64,000 bases of DNA from Candidatus Woesearchaeota archaeon. Its GTDB lineage: Archaea; Nanobdellota; Nanobdellia; Woesearchaeales; ARS49. The stretch is taken from the NCBI GenBank assembly GCA_030750765.1, contig JASMHM010000002.1, positions 21,772 through 85,771 of the forward strand. The letters run 5' to 3'. Positions 16,301 to 21,219 of this stretch are shown one piece after another. The notes under the pieces were generated by a model. The model saw only the letters and a program-made list of their open reading frames with translations, had not been told where the DNA came from and made no database searches. The number at the start of each line of letters is the position of its first letter. Position 1 is the stretch's first letter. The translations under genes and the position numbers were made by a program.

Positions 16301-17986
16301 ATGGCAACTATAGGTGCGTTTGTGAATGATTTCCATATGTGGCTAGATGAACGACTAACGCGGTTGGAGAGTAAGGCTGCATCGTCGCGCGAGGATGCAG
16401 AGGAAGATTTACAGAAACTCTTAGGGTATCCCAGAATTTTGTACGAGATTGCTAGCGGCACTCATACTGTTCCTGATAATGTCTCACGCGCTTCTAGCGA
16501 AGACCACGAATTTTCCCCTGAAGTAGCGTTGGCTGACGGTGCAGAGAAATATTTGCCAGGGGGCATAGATCCCCGTTTGCAGCAAGGTATGCACCTTTGG
16601 GCCAGTGTTGGTGAAGATTCTGACAGATTACAAGAGCTGATACCCTACATCTATGCGTGTTTCCATGATGCGTTCCAGATGTCAACAGTTGGTCCTTTCG
16701 CCCCGCTGGCTTTGGAGGCACAGACTAAAGCTGTTGGGAAACTGAATGATTCTTTTCCCGTAACTCGAATACGTATCAACGATGATCCTCATTACGCAAT
16801 TAAATGTTATCCCAAGGGAGATCCTCGACCGGCTACTCAGGCTGCAAATTGTACTGCGTTAGGCAAGACGTATCAGAACTGGGATTTGACCAGAATCCCT
16901 ATTCCTTGTGTTCTCGGAACCATCGAGCTCCCTGATGAAGATTATGTCTTTATGGGAATGACTGGCGAGCCTGGAGTTCCCCTCAACCGCGAGCTCGGGG
17001 TCGCGGACCTTAGTGATGAAGCGCGAATGCATCACCTCAGAGAACTTGTAGGGATGTCTGTGCATATGGGTTATCAATTGGCAGGTCAACTAGGAAGTAA
17101 AGAAAAAGATTTGGATTATGCGCGTAGGTCATTCAGCACGCCAAGAGGAACCCGGGCTCACATCGGGGCAAAGACAGTCCGTGCCATTGAGGAAAGCGGT
17201 TTCCAAGATAGAGATACCGACTTGTATGCCTATCTTCTTAGCTTTTTGGAAAATATTGATCATCTTCGAGATCAAATAAACGATGATTCGCTTTGTGTGA
17301 TGGTTGATGGAAGTCCTGAAAATATCAGTCTGAACGGTGGTGAATACCGCCTTATCGATTTTGAGAACAGACTAGGATACTTTTTTGCTAGTGAGGTGTG
17401 GGCGGGATTACTGCATCCGGATTCGGGATATGATTTTTCACCAAAAAATGAAGGCATGACTAAAGCATACGTCGCTTTTGCTGCAGGTGTTGGAGCGCTA
17501 TACAATGAGCAACTATCTGGGAAGATGTTGATGGACCTTGATTGGGAGGATCCTGCCTCAATATATCGTGAAATTGGACGAGTAAAGAGCGAGAATGGCC
17601 AGGATCTAGATATTATTTACCGACATTCTCTGGGCTGTGCGGTCAAGAGTGCTTTCGAGAATCTGCGAATGGGAATATCCCGTCGGAAAGCGGCTAATGA
17701 TTACACAGATGATCTATGGGTTGCAAACTCTTCCTTCTTACAAGCTCTTGATGATGTTGAACGCACTTCGGGTTCACTCATGAACCGACTTCAGCAAGAA
17801 TGGACTCCAGACACCACACAAAACTGGGATTGTTTTAGTACGCGCACACGATGGCTTGGCTTTCAAATAATCAAGAATGAGTTTGAGAGAGGAATAGAAC
17901 ATTACGGGGCAGTTTGTGAGAGCGCATTGACCATGCTTGGTTTTGACGAAGCTTCTCAAGTAAGAGAAACTTATTTCAAAATCTGA
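16301..17986 (+). CDS. Large protein with APH/choline-kinase-like (protein kinase-like fold) domain
   Basis: YAIKCY, IPIPCVL, GVPL, catalytic-loop-like DGSPENI, LIDFE. Confidence 0.55.
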   Translation: MATIGAFVNDFHMWLDERLTRLESKAASSREDAEEDLQKLLGYPRILYEIASGTHTVPDNVSRASSEDHEFSPEVALADGAEKYLPGGIDPRLQQGMHLWASVGEDSDRLQELIPYIYACFHDAFQMSTVGPFAPLALEAQTKAVGKLNDSFPVTRIRINDDPHYAIKCYPKGDPRPATQAANCTALGKTYQNWDLTRIPIPCVLGTIELPDEDYVFMGMTGEPGVPLNRELGVADLSDEARMHHLRELVGMSVHMGYQLAGQLGSKEKDLDYARRSFSTPRGTRAHIGAKTVRAIEESGFQDRDTDLYAYLLSFLENIDHLRDQINDDSLCVMVDGSPENISLNGGEYRLIDFENRLGYFFASEVWAGLLHPDSGYDFSPKNEGMTKAYVAFAAGVGALYNEQLSGKMLMDLDWEDPASIYREIGRVKSENGQDLDIIYRHSLGCAVKSAFENLRMGISRRKAANDYTDDLWVANSSFLQALDDVERTSGSLMNRLQQEWTPDTTQNWDCFSTRTRWLGFQIIKNEFERGIEHYGAVCESALTMLGFDEASQVRETYFKI

Positions 17987-18888
17987 TCATCAAAGCACAT
18001 TTGAATGGTCGGGATGGCCAGACTTCTAATGCTTATCAATAAGTCATGAACAAACGCAACATGAACGGTTATCTGGCCTTTTTTACTAACGAGCGAGTCG
18101 ACAATATCCTTTGTCTGCTTACTATGCAAAACCAATCGAGGGATGTGTTCTTGCTTGCGTGATCTCAACAGACTCAATATTTCATCCAGAAAGGAATCTA
18201 GGCTTTTTAGTGCATTAACCGTCGCCTTACTAGGAGCCCTAGGTGCAAACGATCTTGCCAAATGTTTATACGCGTCTCCGATACCTTCCAGCTGATCGAC
18301 AATATCGTACATAGGCCCTATTGATTCTTTTATTGTTTCTGGATGTTTTGTGATGAGGCGTAGACAGAAGAAAGAAAACTTGTTAACGTTAACATCCATT
18401 AACACTATGTTGGCGTATCCTGCTGCGTCGTGGTTTGCTGCTGCATCAGTCATTTCCTTAGCCATGTTACCTATGAATACTAGCAAGCGTTTGAGCACGT
18501 GCCCAAATTCTTCAGGAATACTGTCGCTGAGTTTTCGTACGACGAGGTGATTCCTTCCCTGGTCTACAACACCAAATCCAACACAGGTGTGGCTGACGAA
18601 ATCTTGAATGGTGGCGATCTGTTCTGGGCCAGACACGTCTAGTCTCATTTCGTCATATCCTGCTTTGTATAGTGAGCTTAGGATGGCCAAACTGGAATAG
18701 TTGTCAGTTATTTTGAGAGATATTGTTCGAGTTTCCTTTCTTATTTCTTCAACAGAAACCAGCAAGCCTCTTGGACCGGGGGTTACCTCGAGCTCATCTC
18801 CTTTAGCTATGTTGTTTTTCTTTGCCCACTCTCTAGGCAGTGAAATGAGCTGCGTACTATTCGCTATTTGTATAACTTTTCGTTTCAT
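17971..18888 (-). CDS. Archaeal AbrB-PhoU phosphate-uptake regulator family protein
   Basis: N-terminal RKVIQIANSTQLISLPREWAKKN..KGDELEV (AbrB), YKAGYDE, PhoU-like DVNVNKF..CLR, LEGIGD. Confidence 0.85.
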   Translation of the reverse strand: MKRKVIQIANSTQLISLPREWAKKNNIAKGDELEVTPGPRGLLVSVEEIRKETRTISLKITDNYSSLAILSSLYKAGYDEMRLDVSGPEQIATIQDFVSHTCVGFGVVDQGRNHLVVRKLSDSIPEEFGHVLKRLLVFIGNMAKEMTDAAANHDAAGYANIVLMDVNVNKFSFFCLRLITKHPETIKESIGPMYDIVDQLEGIGDAYKHLARSFAPRAPSKATVNALKSLDSFLDEILSLLRSRKQEHIPRLVLHSKQTKDIVDSLVSKKGQITVHVAFVHDLLISIRSLAIPTIQMCFDDQILK

Positions 18889-18906
18889 CCACTAGGCATA
18901 GCGTCT

Positions 18907-18950
18907 GATTATATAAAAAGGTTGCGATTATATAAAGATTATAAATTATA
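18907..18950. promoter_or_regulatory. ATTATATAA repeat array 1
   Basis: TTATATAA at 18909 and 18928 plus TTATAA half copies. Confidence 0.55.
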
Positions 18951-19005
18951 AGGAATAACTATATTAAAACCCTTTGTACGGTATTTCTTAGAGGAAACCC
19001 GAAAT

Positions 19006-19143
19006 ATGGGGAGTACGCGAAAGATAAACGAGCCGCATCTGAACCGCCGCCAATGGGATGAAGATCTCTGGGAGGAGGAGTTGGATGACGACGAAATCAT
19101 GGAGGAAAGCAACAATGGAAAACGAAACACCAATGGTAATTGA
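19006..19143 (+). CDS. Acidic Trp-containing microprotein A1 (45 aa)
   Basis: MGSTRKINEPHLNRRQWDEDLWEEELDDDEIMEESNNGKRNTNGN; similar to A2. Confidence 0.6.
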   Translation: MGSTRKINEPHLNRRQWDEDLWEEELDDDEIMEESNNGKRNTNGN

Positions 19144-19231
19144 AGACGTCGGAGATCTCCAGGCTTTTCTGTGTAACAACTTACAAGACAGAAAGAAGCG
19201 TGCGAGATTCCAGCGCGCATCACTGCAATAA
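19115..19231 (+). CDS. Microprotein B1 (38 aa)
   Basis: MENETPMVIEDVGDLQAFLCNNLQDRKKRARFQRASLQ; GGAGG SD at 19101-19105; clear paralogue of B2. Confidence 0.75.
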   Translation: MENETPMVIEDVGDLQAFLCNNLQDRKKRARFQRASLQ

Positions 19232-19254
19232 CGCGTCTTCACTCACTTGAGACT

Positions 19255-19321
19255 ACCCCGTCCCTCTCACGAGGGATGGGGTCTATTTCTACATTTTTTT
19301 TATTATCTTTTTTCTTTATTT
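19255..19321 (+). terminator. GC-rich hairpin followed by T-rich tract
   Basis: ACCCCGTCCCTC-TCAC-GAGGGATGGGGT 12-bp stem (one G-U), then T-runs. Confidence 0.6.
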
Positions 19322-19330
19322 GTCACTCCA

Positions 19331-19388
19331 ATTATATAAAATTCAACAATTATATAATTATTATAAAGTTTAAAGCATAATTATATAA
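19331..19388. promoter_or_regulatory. ATTATATAA repeat array 2
   Basis: TTATATAA at 19332, 19350 and 19381. Confidence 0.55.
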
Positions 19389-19435
19389 TCTTAATATGGT
19401 GCATACTTGTTATCAACACCAAGGGGGTTAGAACC

Positions 19436-19561
19436 ATGAACGAAGAAGAATGGATGGACGACACCGTATGGGAGAACGACATGGATGAAGGGTCGCTATG
19501 GGAAGAGGCCTTCATGCAGGGCGTACGCGAAGCCGAAGAAGAAGGCTTTGGGGGGGCATGA
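19436..19561 (+). CDS. Acidic Trp-containing microprotein A2 (41 aa)
   Basis: MNEEEWMDDTVWENDMDEGSLWEEAFMQGVREAEEEGFGGA; GGGGGT SD upstream. Confidence 0.7.
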   Translation: MNEEEWMDDTVWENDMDEGSLWEEAFMQGVREAEEEGFGGA

Positions 19562-19563
19562 AC

Positions 19564-19674
19564 ATGGATGACATACCCTTTATTGTTACAGACATTGAGG
19601 ATGTACGCGCTTTCCTCATGAACGAGGCACTTGACAGAAAGCGTCGCACCAAATACCAACAACACCTAGACTAG
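19564..19674 (+). CDS. Microprotein B2 (36 aa; alternative in-frame start 19558)
   Basis: MDDIPFIVTDIEDVRAFLMNEALDRKRRTKYQQHLD; G-rich SD and ATGA coupling to A2. Confidence 0.75.
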   Translation: MDDIPFIVTDIEDVRAFLMNEALDRKRRTKYQQHLD

Positions 19675-20349
19675 GTCGGCCAGCCTGCCAAACGGTAGCA
19701 CTTGTTTGTCTACCACGAACACTTCTGTTTTGGCGGGCACGGCTAGATCTGGAGGGTTGTTGATGACATCTGAACCTTCCTTAAGTGTATTGAAAGAGGG
19801 TTGTACAATAATCGTGGATTTTCCTTGCGTGATCTTAAGAAAGCATTTGTACAGTTCACTCTTTCTATCTTCACGAAGACGCACCGCAGGATGGTAGTGT
19901 CCGATGATCAGCACCTTAGGCAGTGGGTCTGGAAGCGTGTCTCCGTGCATGATCGTCATACCTCCTGCGTTGTAGGATGTGACTAAGGAGAGATTGCGAT
20001 CTTTGGCAATCGGGTCAAGAACGGTGTCATGATTGCCTTTCACGACCACAAGCTTTGCTTTTTGTTGGATATAATCAATAAGTTTTTTCACGTTTCTCCA
20101 TTCTTGTGGTCCTATGCTGCCGAACTGGTCCTTGATGTCCCCATTAAGCACGACGGTGGTGGGCTTGGCCACGTCCATTATTGTTTGTAGCCGGTCAAGC
20201 ACCTCTGTAAAAGGGCGTTTGGGTACGAGCACGCCCTGCTTGTTGAGACTTTCCTCTAGCCCAATATGGACGTCAGAGATGACTAATGTTTTTGACGCTT
20301 CAATGTAGCAAGCTACGTCAACAGCCACCACACCCTCGCATAGTTTCAT
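19666..20349 (-). CDS. Calcineurin-like metallophosphoesterase (SbcD/Mre11-related, Lhr-associated MPE type)
   Basis: ISDVHIG, NGDIKD, GNHD, HGD, GHYHPAV, PSFN; start MKLCEG. Confidence 0.85.
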   Translation of the reverse strand: MKLCEGVVAVDVACYIEASKTLVISDVHIGLEESLNKQGVLVPKRPFTEVLDRLQTIMDVAKPTTVVLNGDIKDQFGSIGPQEWRNVKKLIDYIQQKAKLVVVKGNHDTVLDPIAKDRNLSLVTSYNAGGMTIMHGDTLPDPLPKVLIIGHYHPAVRLREDRKSELYKCFLKITQGKSTIIVQPSFNTLKEGSDVINNPPDLAVPAKTEVFVVDKQVLPFGRLADLV

Positions 20350-20424
20350 GGTGGTGAAATCTATCTTGAGTACAAAAAGATATCCTATAGGGAACTTTAT
20401 AAGTCGCGTTCTACTGTGCAATCC

Positions 20425-21219
20425 ATGGATCTTGAGGGTGCTCTCATTTTTGGAATGGGTGTTGTTGAAGAGGCTGGAAGAGCGATTCAAGCGGTAAGAC
20501 GATCTGGTTTTATTGAGCTTGATTACAAAGCTGACAATTCGCCTGTCACAAAAGCAGATCACCTAAGTGAGGAGATCATAAGAGATCGACTACTAGGGCG
20601 ATTTCCTGACACTGGTTTTTGCGGTGAGGAGAGAGATGCACAAAATCCTGGGGCGCCGTTCCTTTGGTATTGCGATCCTTTGTGCGGAACCTCCTCGTTC
20701 ATCAGGTACGAGAACACCATCGCCATCAGCCTGGCATTAGTTAACGAGGGTAAAACGGTGCTTGGCATAGTACACAATCCGTTTACCGGCGAGTCGTGGT
20801 ATGCTGCTGATGGTACGAGACCTGTTTACAACAAGGGGACCATGCCTTCGCAGTCTCCAGAAAAATGCTCAGAGGCAATATGTAACTATGGGGTTCCTTC
20901 AGACGACTACGATACCGTACGTAAGCTCATGGAACTGAGACATGAGGAGAAATTGGGTAAGTTAGTAAGTCCTGGAGGCTCAGCAGGCCTCGCCCTTGCC
21001 CAGGTTGCCCAGGGTGTTTACAGCATTCTCTTCGTGAACTCTGCCAAAAATGGAAAGCCGGCAGATCTTGCAGCAGGAATTTACCTCGTTGATAAGGTGG
21101 GCGGTATTACAACTCAGACAGATGGTAGCGACTTTGATATTTTTGGTGGCCCAACAACGGTGCTGTCTGTTAACAATCGTAAACTCCATGAGGATGCGCT
21201 GAACGTATTGTGTGGGTAG
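20425..21219 (+). CDS. Inositol monophosphatase family protein
   Basis: SPVTKAD, GEE, W.CDPLCGT, DLAAG. Confidence 0.85.
   Translation: MDLEGALIFGMGVVEEAGRAIQAVRRSGFIELDYKADNSPVTKADHLSEEIIRDRLLGRFPDTGFCGEERDAQNPGAPFLWYCDPLCGTSSFIRYENTIAISLALVNEGKTVLGIVHNPFTGESWYAADGTRPVYNKGTMPSQSPEKCSEAICNYGVPSDDYDTVRKLMELRHEEKLGKLVSPGGSAGLALAQVAQGVYSILFVNSAKNGKPADLAAGIYLVDKVGGITTQTDGSDFDIFGGPTTVLSVNNRKLHEDALNVLCG

Follow-up and report, generated by a model that had tools for sequence, protein, structure and literature searches.

Small RNAs derived from the 3′-UTRs of bacterial mRNAs run from a conserved seed through a terminator hairpin to a U tail. DPANN archaea have tiny genomes and are almost all uncultivated, and to our knowledge gene regulation in these organisms is essentially unstudied. 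Among regulators of the AbrB fold, AbrB of Bacillus subtilis is countered by AbbA, a small acidic anti-repressor described as acting as a DNA mimetic (PMC4238804). In the DNA analyzed here (64,000 nucleotides from a Woesearchaeota genome, hereafter the window), a regulator with an AbrB-type domain is encoded beside four very small open reading frames (ORFs) and a structured element (Table 1). As in other archaeal AbrB-PhoU regulators, the N terminus of the window protein is a SpoVT/AbrB domain, and a PhoU-like helical domain is putatively present as well. These genomes hold an enlarged AbrB-PhoU family, amounting to as many as eight matches per genome of ~1 Mb; the difference is that one orthologue group alone, comprising the best matches to the window regulator, has the microprotein/RNA cassette described below. 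A literature search at record level found nothing tying AbrB-PhoU regulators to small-protein operons.

The N-terminal domain of the regulator matched PF04014 (MazE/AbrB) with an E value of 7.5e-7 and 29.5 bits (cut-off 24.7). The PhoU score of the window protein alone was 16.8 bits, under the Pfam cut-off of 23.5; among 10 regulator orthologues, AbrB was detected in all 10 and PhoU in eight at E ≤ 0.1 (best 2.5e-5). The regulator profile also matched solved PhoU structures (4q25, E 1.9e-5; 2i0m; 1t72) at E values of 2e-5 to 1e-3, a range in which designed coiled coils score equally.

Table 1. Features of the regulator and microprotein locus, in window coordinates.
Feature	Position	Strand	Remarks
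AbrB-PhoU regulator	17971..18888	-	305 aa, divergent from module 1
Divergent promoter/operator-like region	18889..19005		four TATA-like AT-rich boxes; composite motif 18928-18951
A1	19006-19143	+	45 aa, acidic; 3′ tail overlaps B1
B1	19115-19231	+	38 aa, basic tail; GGAGG 9 nt upstream
12-nt box GTCTTCACTCAC	19235..19246	+	starts 3 nt past B1 stop codon
12-bp GC-rich hairpin	19255..19282	+	followed by T8 run 19294-19301
Module 2 duplicated promoter	19302..19435		composite motif 19350-19373
A2	19436-19561	+	41 aa, acidic; family motif LWEEAFMQGVREAEEE
B2	19558-19674	+	38 aa, or 36 aa from ATG 19564
Metallophosphoesterase	19666..20562	-	maximal ORF; true start probably further in

Coding status and families of the microproteins

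The original prediction placed four small genes in an apparent intergenic gap next to the regulator, and all four ORFs are present at the positions given for them. A and B overlap or abut, as had been described, with a 29-nt overlap in module 1 and an ATGA overlap or abutting arrangement in module 2; the second ATG of B2 has better Shine-Dalgarno spacing and agrees with the N termini of orthologues. Because the A-to-B frame offset is +1 in one module and −1 in the other, A and B are separate, coupled genes, and a programmed frameshift fusing them is excluded by the same inequality.

Coding was examined against the syntenic locus of Woesearchaeota MAG G001. In the claimed frames, dN/dS between these homologues was far below 1 for A1 (0.16), B1 (0.07), A2 (0.11), and B2 (0.13), with third-position bias, while the other two same-strand frames of the four genes gave 0.74–1.83 (0.74 and 1.42 for A1). 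Purifying selection in the claimed frames alone bears out the proposal that these are real genes. Leave-out HMMs, built solely from genomes other than that of the window, recovered A2 at E 1e-10, A1 at 1e-3, B2 at 7e-7, and B1 at 7e-4; A2 with A1, and B2 with B1, were the top two matches of the respective HMMs when all 1843 six-frame segments in the window were scored. All four exact peptides are already gene calls in public collections, where proteins clustering with A1 and A2 are annotated “hypothetical protein”. Contigs from four DNA sequencing runs contain near-identical copies, with a single A>G change at 19058 and one weak joint. The very short length of the ORFs, the biased composition of A, and the weak similarity of A1 to A2 could all be expected if these were frames open by chance between two genes. 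Such an origin is nonetheless exceedingly improbable, in view of the restriction of low dN/dS to the claimed frames, the top ranking of all four ORFs by the leave-out HMMs, and the many genomes holding orthologues with the same order and start signals. Judged from sequence comparison, A1, B1, A2, and B2 are real coding genes.

The A family is acidic and carries a conserved amphipathic helix, (P)WExAFxxG. A2 is a full member of the group of A-type (P)WExAFxxG peptides encoded divergently from an AbrB-PhoU orthologue, and A1 is a partial one, which retains W-DEDLWEEELDDDEIMEE but no longer has the helix segment AFxxG; its tail is unconserved, the G001 copy ending five codons sooner. Identity to the A peptides of genome G024 and metagenome contig L025 is 46–48% for A2 and 27–29% for A1. 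The likeness asserted between A1 and A2 is weak when the pair is taken alone (8/25 identical, E 0.002, acidic composition) and is upheld by the leave-out HMMs. An AlphaFold2 model of A2 consists of a low-confidence N-terminal coil and a predicted helix at residues 18–35. The ESM Atlas model of an A protein has a pLDDT of 0.41, and an Atlas search with an A protein returned only unnamed clusters below 0.9; FlgM and Fil, present among the short-helix structure rows, were considered meaningless matches and given no weight.

B1 and B2 align without gaps, as originally described, with 12/31 residues identical and 22/31 positive (BLASTP E 2e-10). Identity to the B peptides of G024 and L025 is 49–54% for B2 and 36–42% for B1. 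B2 was modeled by AlphaFold2 as a short extended N terminus followed by a long helix (residues 13–37; mean pLDDT 84), and Foldseek comparison of this model to the PDB gave 0 matches. The basic tail of B, DRKKRxKYQ, is limited to the near clade of the window; other B peptides end in EEYFxKxMxK. No longer protein with a B-like part was found, in a search that provides weak evidence. Weak B-profile matches were seen in G298 and G261, of which the former lies inside a 364-aa gene and was attributed to chance. Neither A nor B matched any family of Pfam, NCBIfam, or PADLOC, toxin and antitoxin families included, consistent with the claim that both are undescribed; A1 and A2, and likewise three A proteins of relatives, had no Pfam family at E ≤ 1.

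Distribution and duplication of the cassette

Besides the window, 29 GTDB genomes and a single metagenome contig (L025) were found to carry the cassette. Its order is a divergent AbrB-PhoU gene, a four-box promoter, A, optional B, optional C, and a 12-nt box with a hairpin and a U-rich stretch, often with a PdeM-like phosphoesterase gene convergent at the end. The same order beside the AbrB-PhoU gene is present in G001, G024, and L025, and cassettes of wider content occur in G036, G011, and further genomes. A homologue search with a check of gene order yielded orthologues in many genomes with the regulator adjoining, and the proposed linkage to the divergent AbrB-PhoU gene is tight in every relative with the pair. 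In 23 cassettes (those of the window, L025, and 21 published genomes), A is present in 21, a B-like ORF in 16, and C, a zinc ribbon, in 11. A occurs without B in seven of the 23, and B is just 23–26 aa long in G015, G027, and G033. The family is therefore broader than the A+B pair first described: several relatives have A alone, and many add C as a third gene, which the window does not have.

The predicted two-module layout is present, but it reflects a recent duplication restricted to the window and one sister lineage, from an ancestor with one module. The duplicated unit comprises promoter, A, and B; module 2 lies near the single-copy orthologues and module 1 has diverged. By this comparison, the four ORFs represent a single-copy cassette duplicated in tandem in a lineage-specific manner, and the genomes surveyed show that the cassette is single-copy and vertically kept in one Woesearchaeales clade. 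It is genuinely undescribed and narrowly distributed.

The convergent phosphoesterase matched TIGR00024 (SbcD_rel_arch) at E 4e-41, above the cut-off, and PdeM at E 2e-29, below the cut-off. Although flanks of only ~1.5 kb each were available, the gene was seen directly behind the cassette at 17 of 26 loci, as would be expected if the microproteins and the PdeM-like phosphoesterase cooperated in processing or repairing DNA or RNA ends. Acidic A could, for instance, be a nucleic acid mimic or a regulator of the enzyme, and expression of the gene could be tuned by convergent transcription, including antisense read-through from module 2; in the window, the A2-B2 operon enters the 3′ end of the phosphoesterase gene without a terminator, with a 9-nt overlap that takes in the last codons of B2 and the stop codon of that gene. 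Such a partnership is nevertheless improbable, as the genes are convergent and not co-transcribed and their spacing varies, with a small membrane ORF between them in G024 and gaps of ~600 nt in G036 and G027.

The original prediction also raised a toxin–antitoxin-like or effector–partner pair, in which a harmful, basic-tailed B would be neutralized by acidic A or by the AbrB-fold protein. Adjacent or overlapping genes of opposite charge, a neighbor with a MazE/AbrB-type antitoxin-like domain, and duplication of the module are all consistent with this arrangement. However, A is kept in the cassettes where B is absent or very short, the basic tail is specific to the near clade, and no toxin or antitoxin family is matched. 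The single-copy cassette is also syntenic with the phosphoesterase in the 17 loci above, unlike mobile, multicopy toxin–antitoxin systems, and the 305-aa AbrB protein has a putative PhoU-like domain and is divergent rather than co-operonic. The proposal is weakened because B is not an obligatory partner, and is poorly supported given that B is dispensable and the cassette single-copy; we regard it as very unlikely.

The 12-nt box, the hairpin, and a possible RNA product

The hairpin predicted between the modules was confirmed by folding of a 74-nt stretch at −27.8 kcal/mol (z −6.8). Rather than merely separating the modules, it is part of a conserved 12-nt box and hairpin, found after B1 and absent after B2. 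Box and hairpin together are the best-conserved sequence of the cassette, above any peptide: of the 12 box columns, 11 never vary across the 23 aligned cassettes, in which the peptides are just 23–50% identical. The exact box was found in 24 of 60 relatives of G001 (five matches for a reversed control), and a covariance model gave exactly one match per genome in 25 of the 60; the 24 matches that include the exact box are adjacent to the regulator or in the same small-ORF context, and the extra match, in G021, is on the contig of the regulator. Compensatory changes affect all eight consensus hairpin pairs, and 93% of alignment cells pair, as compared to 71% upon shuffling and 29–47% upon sliding. 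In 16 of 23 cassettes the last small-ORF stop codon sits 0–5 nt upstream of the box or takes in its first base, whether A, B, or C is last. In G009 the box is 113 nt from the regulator start with no small ORF between, and a scaffold gap follows. The structure-conserved GC-rich stem and the U-rich stretch after it are traits resembling an intrinsic terminator; U-richness 3′ of the stem varies among relatives. Rfam 15 gave 0 matches in the window at the gathering score and, over eight cassette loci at E ≤ 5, a single unrelated weak match elsewhere. Copies of the 12-mer without hairpin or regulator were attributed to chance (G001 C21, G005 C3, G017 C1 and C17, and G018 C8), and the same judgment was made for nine of 14 new phylum-level loci. 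Pairing of the box with the operon 5′ leader, sought by eye, was also rejected, as module 2 of G001 has a 10-bp match that the window does not share.

These observations raise the alternative that the main product is RNA, with box and hairpin forming a 3′-end-derived small RNA or a cis-acting 3′ element; the upstream small ORFs would mainly bring ribosomes, whose termination beside the box would gate its function. Box invariance above divergent peptides, hairpin covariation, one copy per genome, stop codons at the box, and the G009 box directly after the promoter are all consistent with such a role, and from the conservation of box and hairpin together with G009, RNA rather than A may be the core product. 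Conversely, the peptides are not mere spacers, given the clear purifying selection on them and the persistence of the A helix motif throughout the clade. Module 2 of both the window and G001 lacks the box, although conservation is higher for A2 and B2 than for A1 and B1; since module 2 of the window has no box, box and peptides are separable. A hairpin and U-rich stretch between convergent genes could also be a bidirectional terminator only, and a reverse-strand search of G001 found 0 exact reverse-complement copies of the box. On balance, we consider RNA as the main product unlikely.

Promoters, candidate mechanism, and relation to known systems

Each pair was predicted to have its own AT-rich promoter, in agreement with the boxes of the two upstream regions being more alike than the coding DNA. 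The divergent promoter region is nearly identical in G001, and the AT-rich boxes are alignable across 25 cassettes and both module-2 copies. A composite motif, TTATATAANNNTTATAAANTNTAA, matched the window twice, once per promoter (Table 1), with 0 matches expected by chance, and exact matches in G001, G024, G005, and G036 are in the cassette only. Among five whole genomes, the motif is confined to the locus in three, has one additional weak match in a fourth, and in the fifth leaves the cassette motif unmatched. The suggestion that the microproteins form the regulon of the divergent AbrB-PhoU protein is thus partly sustained: a motif mostly private to the locus would fit a private regulon. Alternatively, the AT-rich boxes may be just strong TATA/BRE elements, with no operator role.

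The best overall explanation of these data is a duplicated small-protein operon within a cassette that would act as an autoregulatory switch, a reading that as a whole falls somewhat short of probable. The component in which the cassette is a self-contained switch, with acidic A acting back on the AbrB-domain regulator, is drawn by analogy and is more tentative, possible rather than likely. In this mechanism, the AbrB-PhoU protein would bind the repeated AT-rich boxes common to both divergent promoters and thereby control its own gene and the microprotein operon. A would feed back on the regulator by anti-repression or DNA mimicry, much as AbbA acts on AbrB in Bacillus, while B and C may be accessory partners tuning this action. 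The 3′ box and hairpin would terminate and stabilize the transcript, the box possibly serving as the seed of a 3′-end-derived small RNA. Prediction of an A+B complex from our own alignments scored 0.00, which makes no call either way. A role in mimicry of phosphate or nucleic acid, also raised originally, would be a further candidate.

A more elaborate, lineage-specific regulatory device built from parts without known relatives, which we consider doubtful, would unite the AbrB-PhoU protein, an antagonizing and probably disordered acidic A, helpers B and C, and a new structured RNA. Its box, located at the last stop codon, would be covered or exposed by terminating ribosomes, such that microprotein translation would be coupled to small RNA or terminator activity, and the duplication in the window could represent a natural rewiring experiment.

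The cassette is compact and conserved with sharply defined parts, no small part belongs to a described family, and microproteins of 36–45 aa in such genomes can evidently be under strong selection. Its narrow taxonomic range restricts its present importance. As the peptides are synthesizable and none of the DNA and RNA elements reaches 120 nt, cheap and concrete tests are available. If A is an anti-repressor, the locus would be an archaeal counterpart of AbrB/AbbA with an independent origin; if the product is RNA, it would be a new RNA motif of archaea with a link to translation termination.

With respect to described systems, type II toxin–antitoxin loci with AbrB/MazE-fold antitoxins are similar in that a PF04014 domain adjoins tiny, tightly coupled genes. 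They differ from the present locus, in which the 305-aa regulator is divergent, no toxin family is found, synteny and single-copy occurrence are the rule, and B can be absent. Bacterial 3′-UTR-derived small RNAs are paralleled by the invariant single-stranded 12-mer, the variable, covarying GC hairpin, and the U-rich mRNA end; here, in contrast, the host is archaeal and Rfam holds no match. Resemblance to AbrB/AbbA lies in the pairing of an AbrB-fold regulator with a very small, strongly acidic protein and would be one of functional analogy only: A matches no Pfam family, that of AbbA included, and is therefore not a relative of AbbA. A is further distinguished by its modeled structure of one helix with a low-confidence coil. 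The regulator here also differs from AbrB in its putative PhoU-like C-terminal domain, and A is encoded divergently beside it, in a cassette that also has B, C, and a 3′ RNA box.

Four small genes in two modules

The 786-nt gap between the start of the divergent AbrB-PhoU regulator gene and the end of the convergent phosphoesterase gene holds four plus-strand ORFs, each of two modules comprising an acidic peptide (A) and a second peptide (B). The predicted arrangement, A1-B1, hairpin, A2-B2, was found intact, with a run of eight T after the 12-bp hairpin. B1 and B2 align without gaps, as had been claimed (12/31 identical, E 2e-10); the proposed likeness of A1 to A2 is present but weak (E 0.002). 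In A1 the family helix no longer has its AFxxG part. The second ATG of B2 (19564) is the more likely start, because a G-run lies 7 nt upstream of it and the predicted N-terminus is orthologue-like (MDAPV..., MGPPV...).

Features of the gap and its borders, with codon-level comparison of the small ORFs between the window and locus L001
Feature	Position	Strand	Product or location	Differences at codon positions 1/2/3	dN/dS
AbrB-PhoU regulator gene	17971-18888	-	left edge of gap		
A1	19006-19143	+	45 aa	6/4/9	0.16
B1	19115-19231	+	38 aa	4/3/11	0.07
Hairpin, 12 bp	19255-19282		between the two pairs; fold -27.8 kcal/mol for 74-nt stretch, z -6.8		
A2	19436-19561	+	41 aa	2/1/9	0.11
B2	19558-19674	+	38 aa; 36 aa from second ATG 19564	5/3/13	0.13
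Phosphoesterase gene	19666-20562	-	right edge of gap		

A scan of one genome per species with the B profile led to a syntenic locus (L001) in a MAG titled Candidatus Woesearchaeota archaeon (G001), whose gene order is that of the window: regulator, A1', B1', hairpin, A2', B2', phosphoesterase. Between the two, dN/dS was 0.07–0.16 in the claimed frames, as compared to 0.74–1.83 in the other two same-strand frames over the same stretches, upholding the claim that the four ORFs are real genes and making chance ORFs barely credible. The peptides are 79–90% identical, the regulator proteins only 44%. Public collections already list all four exact peptide sequences as called genes, and give cluster mates of A1 and A2 the name “hypothetical protein [Candidatus Woesearchaeota archaeon]”; it was only the ORF track behind the original prediction that lacked them. 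One of the A1 cluster mates, in NCBI, is 45 aa long. Relative to A, the frame of B is offset by +1 in module 1 but by -1 in module 2, which rules out a recoding event joining A and B and indicates separate, translationally coupled genes.

Contigs of two sequencing runs (X14 and X15; depth about 3) carry A>G at 19058, which would turn Asp18 of A1 into Gly and also abolishes the ATG of a long alternative B1 frame. On the far side of the regulator, a convergent 561-aa ORF (16301-17986, +) covers the final 16 nt of the regulator gene; it matched no Pfam, NCBIfam or PADLOC family, and the 566-aa ORF at its place in L001 showed no similarity by tblastn at E 1e-5.

A wider cassette beside one AbrB-PhoU orthologue group

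Regulator orthologues carry an AbrB/MazE domain in 10/10 cases and a PhoU domain in 8/10; the window regulator's own PhoU score is below cut-off, and a profile reaches solved PhoU structures. AbrB-PhoU genes are strongly expanded among the 60 relatives of G001 (genomes of about 1 Mb), with matches in 54, up to eight per genome and a common N-terminus, MKRKVIQIA.STQL.SLPR.W. Only one orthologue group has beside it the cassette of promoter boxes, small ORFs and 3' box with hairpin. A1, B1, A2 and B2 are genes of a conserved single-copy cassette tightly linked to one AbrB-PhoU orthologue.

A narrow B profile found four clusters among 1.84 billion representatives, all being copies from the window, genome G024 or metagenome contig L025, with two convincing genomes among the 60 relatives and one of 401 in an order-wide sample. 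Weak matches in genomes G036 (E 0.023) and G011 (E 0.027) each sit upstream of a divergent AbrB-PhoU paralogue, in an operon of an A-like ORF (61–62 aa, ending ...WEDAF.RG....), a B-like ORF at an ATGA overlap and C, a 40–49-aa CxxC...CxxC zinc ribbon, followed by the same DNA box and by a hairpin. The survey then took in each relative's best AbrB-PhoU locus and all exact box copies. “Clade” stands in this text for the nearest 36 of the 60 relatives together with five other genomes and is not a taxonomic assignment. ORFs were readable in 23 cassettes (window, L025 and 21 published genomes): A in 21 (none in G009; the G033 contig begins inside the cassette), a B-like ORF in 16 and C in 11. Homologues in A-B order and linked to AbrB-PhoU genes, as envisaged in the original prediction, were recovered; a toxin-antitoxin pair, also suggested there, is a quite improbable reading of the two peptides. 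Unpublished genomes G010, G025 and G035 have the same cassette and add three to the exact-12-mer and covariance-model tallies below; one G035 C protein was among those scanned for families, and no claim depends on these genomes.

The N-terminus varies among the aligned A peptides (22 sequences), which have an acidic run, the motif (P)WExAFxxG...A and, in many cases, an acidic tail with a terminal aromatic residue. Aligned B peptides (18 sequences) share a helix and (V/F)IxDIxx(I/L)(K/R)(A/E)F(V/I); only those of the window's near clade have the basic DRKKRxKYQ tail. HMMs that excluded the window and G001 ranked the four peptides first among 1843 window segments (A2 E 1e-10, A1 1e-3, B2 7e-7, B1 7e-4). 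When the near clade was also left out, A2 (1e-9) and A1 (1e-3) held and B2 (0.009) and B1 (0.19, rank 3) were weak, so that kinship of near- and far-clade B rests partly on position. The A profile found 29 proteins among 5.8 billion; the names given are all “hypothetical protein” and the organisms, where stated, Woesearchaeota. A and B matched no Pfam, NCBIfam or PADLOC family. AlphaFold2 with custom alignments predicted an extended N-terminus and helix 13-37 for B2 (mean pLDDT 84), and a low-confidence acidic N-terminus and helix 18-35 for A2 (mean pLDDT 69).

C is absent from the window; in relatives it follows B (or A) and precedes the 3' box, and its pattern is C(V/I)SCG..I.KSA..DPY.CR.CE....(R)Y.WLD (L005 1584-1733; L006 1322-1465 (-); L059, L060, L067, L068, L071, L073, L074, L085 and L086); family searches gave only sub-threshold generic zinc-ribbon matches.

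In 17/26 loci the cassette is followed by the convergent phosphoesterase, a TIGR00024 protein with a PdeM-like match below cut-off, although the loci have only about 1.5 kb of flank each. The microproteins are unlikely to be its partner.

Promoter boxes private to the cassette, and its structured 3' element

AT-rich boxes upstream of the pairs are better shared than the DNA of the coding parts. Across the 64-kb window, a 24-nt composite motif, TTATATAANNNTTATAAANTNTAA, has just two sites, 18928 and 19350 (0 expected by chance), one before each pair, in agreement with the predicted promoter region for each. Exact matches in G001, G024, G005 and G036 occur only at the cassette; that of G016 is unmatched within two mismatches. 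Counted outward from the regulator ATG, four TATA-like boxes bring 25 cassettes and the two module-2 copies into register: ..TATATAAA.., ..TTATAAAA.., TTATATAA-N3-TTATAAAnTnTAA and ..A(C/T)TATATAA... Since the TATA box of archaeal promoters precedes the start by about 26 nt, the outer boxes would suit a regulator mRNA that runs leftward without a leader and an operon mRNA that runs rightward from a short leader with a Shine-Dalgarno motif; the two inner boxes are a candidate operator. At 19302-19349, module 2 also duplicates the leftward-facing outer box, which, if active, might speculatively drive transcription antisense to the hairpin, box and B1.

The box, 12-mer GTCTTCACTCAC, is exact in 24/60 relatives, all within the 36 listed first, and at 30 places (reversed control, 5); in every one of the 24 genomes a single copy has a GC-rich hairpin after it, the extra copies having neither hairpin nor regulator. 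The last small ORF (A, B or C) stops 0–5 nt before the box or over its first base in 16/23 cassettes. Across the 23, 11/12 box columns are invariant and the stems differ; RNAalifold gave eight pairs, all with compensatory changes. Pairing held in 93.1% of cells versus 70.8% in shuffles (0/500 reach it) and 29–47% when slid, with a covariation score of 0.695 versus 0.267. The covariance model (R1) had exactly one match per genome in 25/60 relatives, of which 20 contributed to R1; the independent ones are the three unpublished genomes and G021, where the contig also has an AbrB-PhoU match at a distance of about 640 nt. An RNA-centred device, which would be compatible with an anti-repressor role for A, is possible but doubtful. 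No Rfam family matched the window or cassette loci.

Phylum-wide, 46/400 sampled genomes contain the 12-mer. Among 14 new loci read, five (G561, G462, G480, G472 and G483) have box and hairpin (-27 to -30 kcal/mol), four of these with the regulator N-terminus upstream; the other nine were judged chance. In G009 (L065 1387-1580), 113 nt separate the regulator start codon from the box and hairpin, with no small ORF between and no U-run after the hairpin; 70 nt further on stands a run of N marking a scaffold gap. Either this cassette has no ORFs or the assembly is at fault here.

The cassette was recently duplicated in the window's lineage

Single-module lineages, with the order regulator, boxes, A, B, hairpin, are represented by G024 and L025; metagenome contigs L023 and L024 repeat the G001 sequence. 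Identity to these orthologues is 49–54% for B2 versus 36–42% for B1, and 46–48% for A2 versus 27–29% for A1, so by sequence module 2 is the nearer copy. The A1 tail overlapping B1 is unconserved, the G001 copy ending five codons earlier. Module 1 is still beside the regulator and still has the 3' box; module 2 is without the box and extends into the phosphoesterase gene.

A 385-nt contig of run X17 joins the regulator 5' end (18859-18888) to a module-2-type promoter box (19350-19373), with 68 other letters at the joint and three and one mismatches on the two sides, the shorter only 24 nt; it may, weakly, represent a single-module relative. At module 2's place, between hairpin and phosphoesterase, G024 has a 63-aa cysteine-rich hydrophobic ORF (L004 1765-1956, +).

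The part of the literature covered by our search held no description of the cassette, and Pfam and Rfam have no family for it; we therefore take it as not in print. Our tentative reading is autoregulatory: the regulator would bind the promoter boxes and control both divergent promoters, the acidic and largely low-confidence, probably disordered A would be an anti-repressor feeding back on the regulator through its AbrB domain, and B and C would be accessory.
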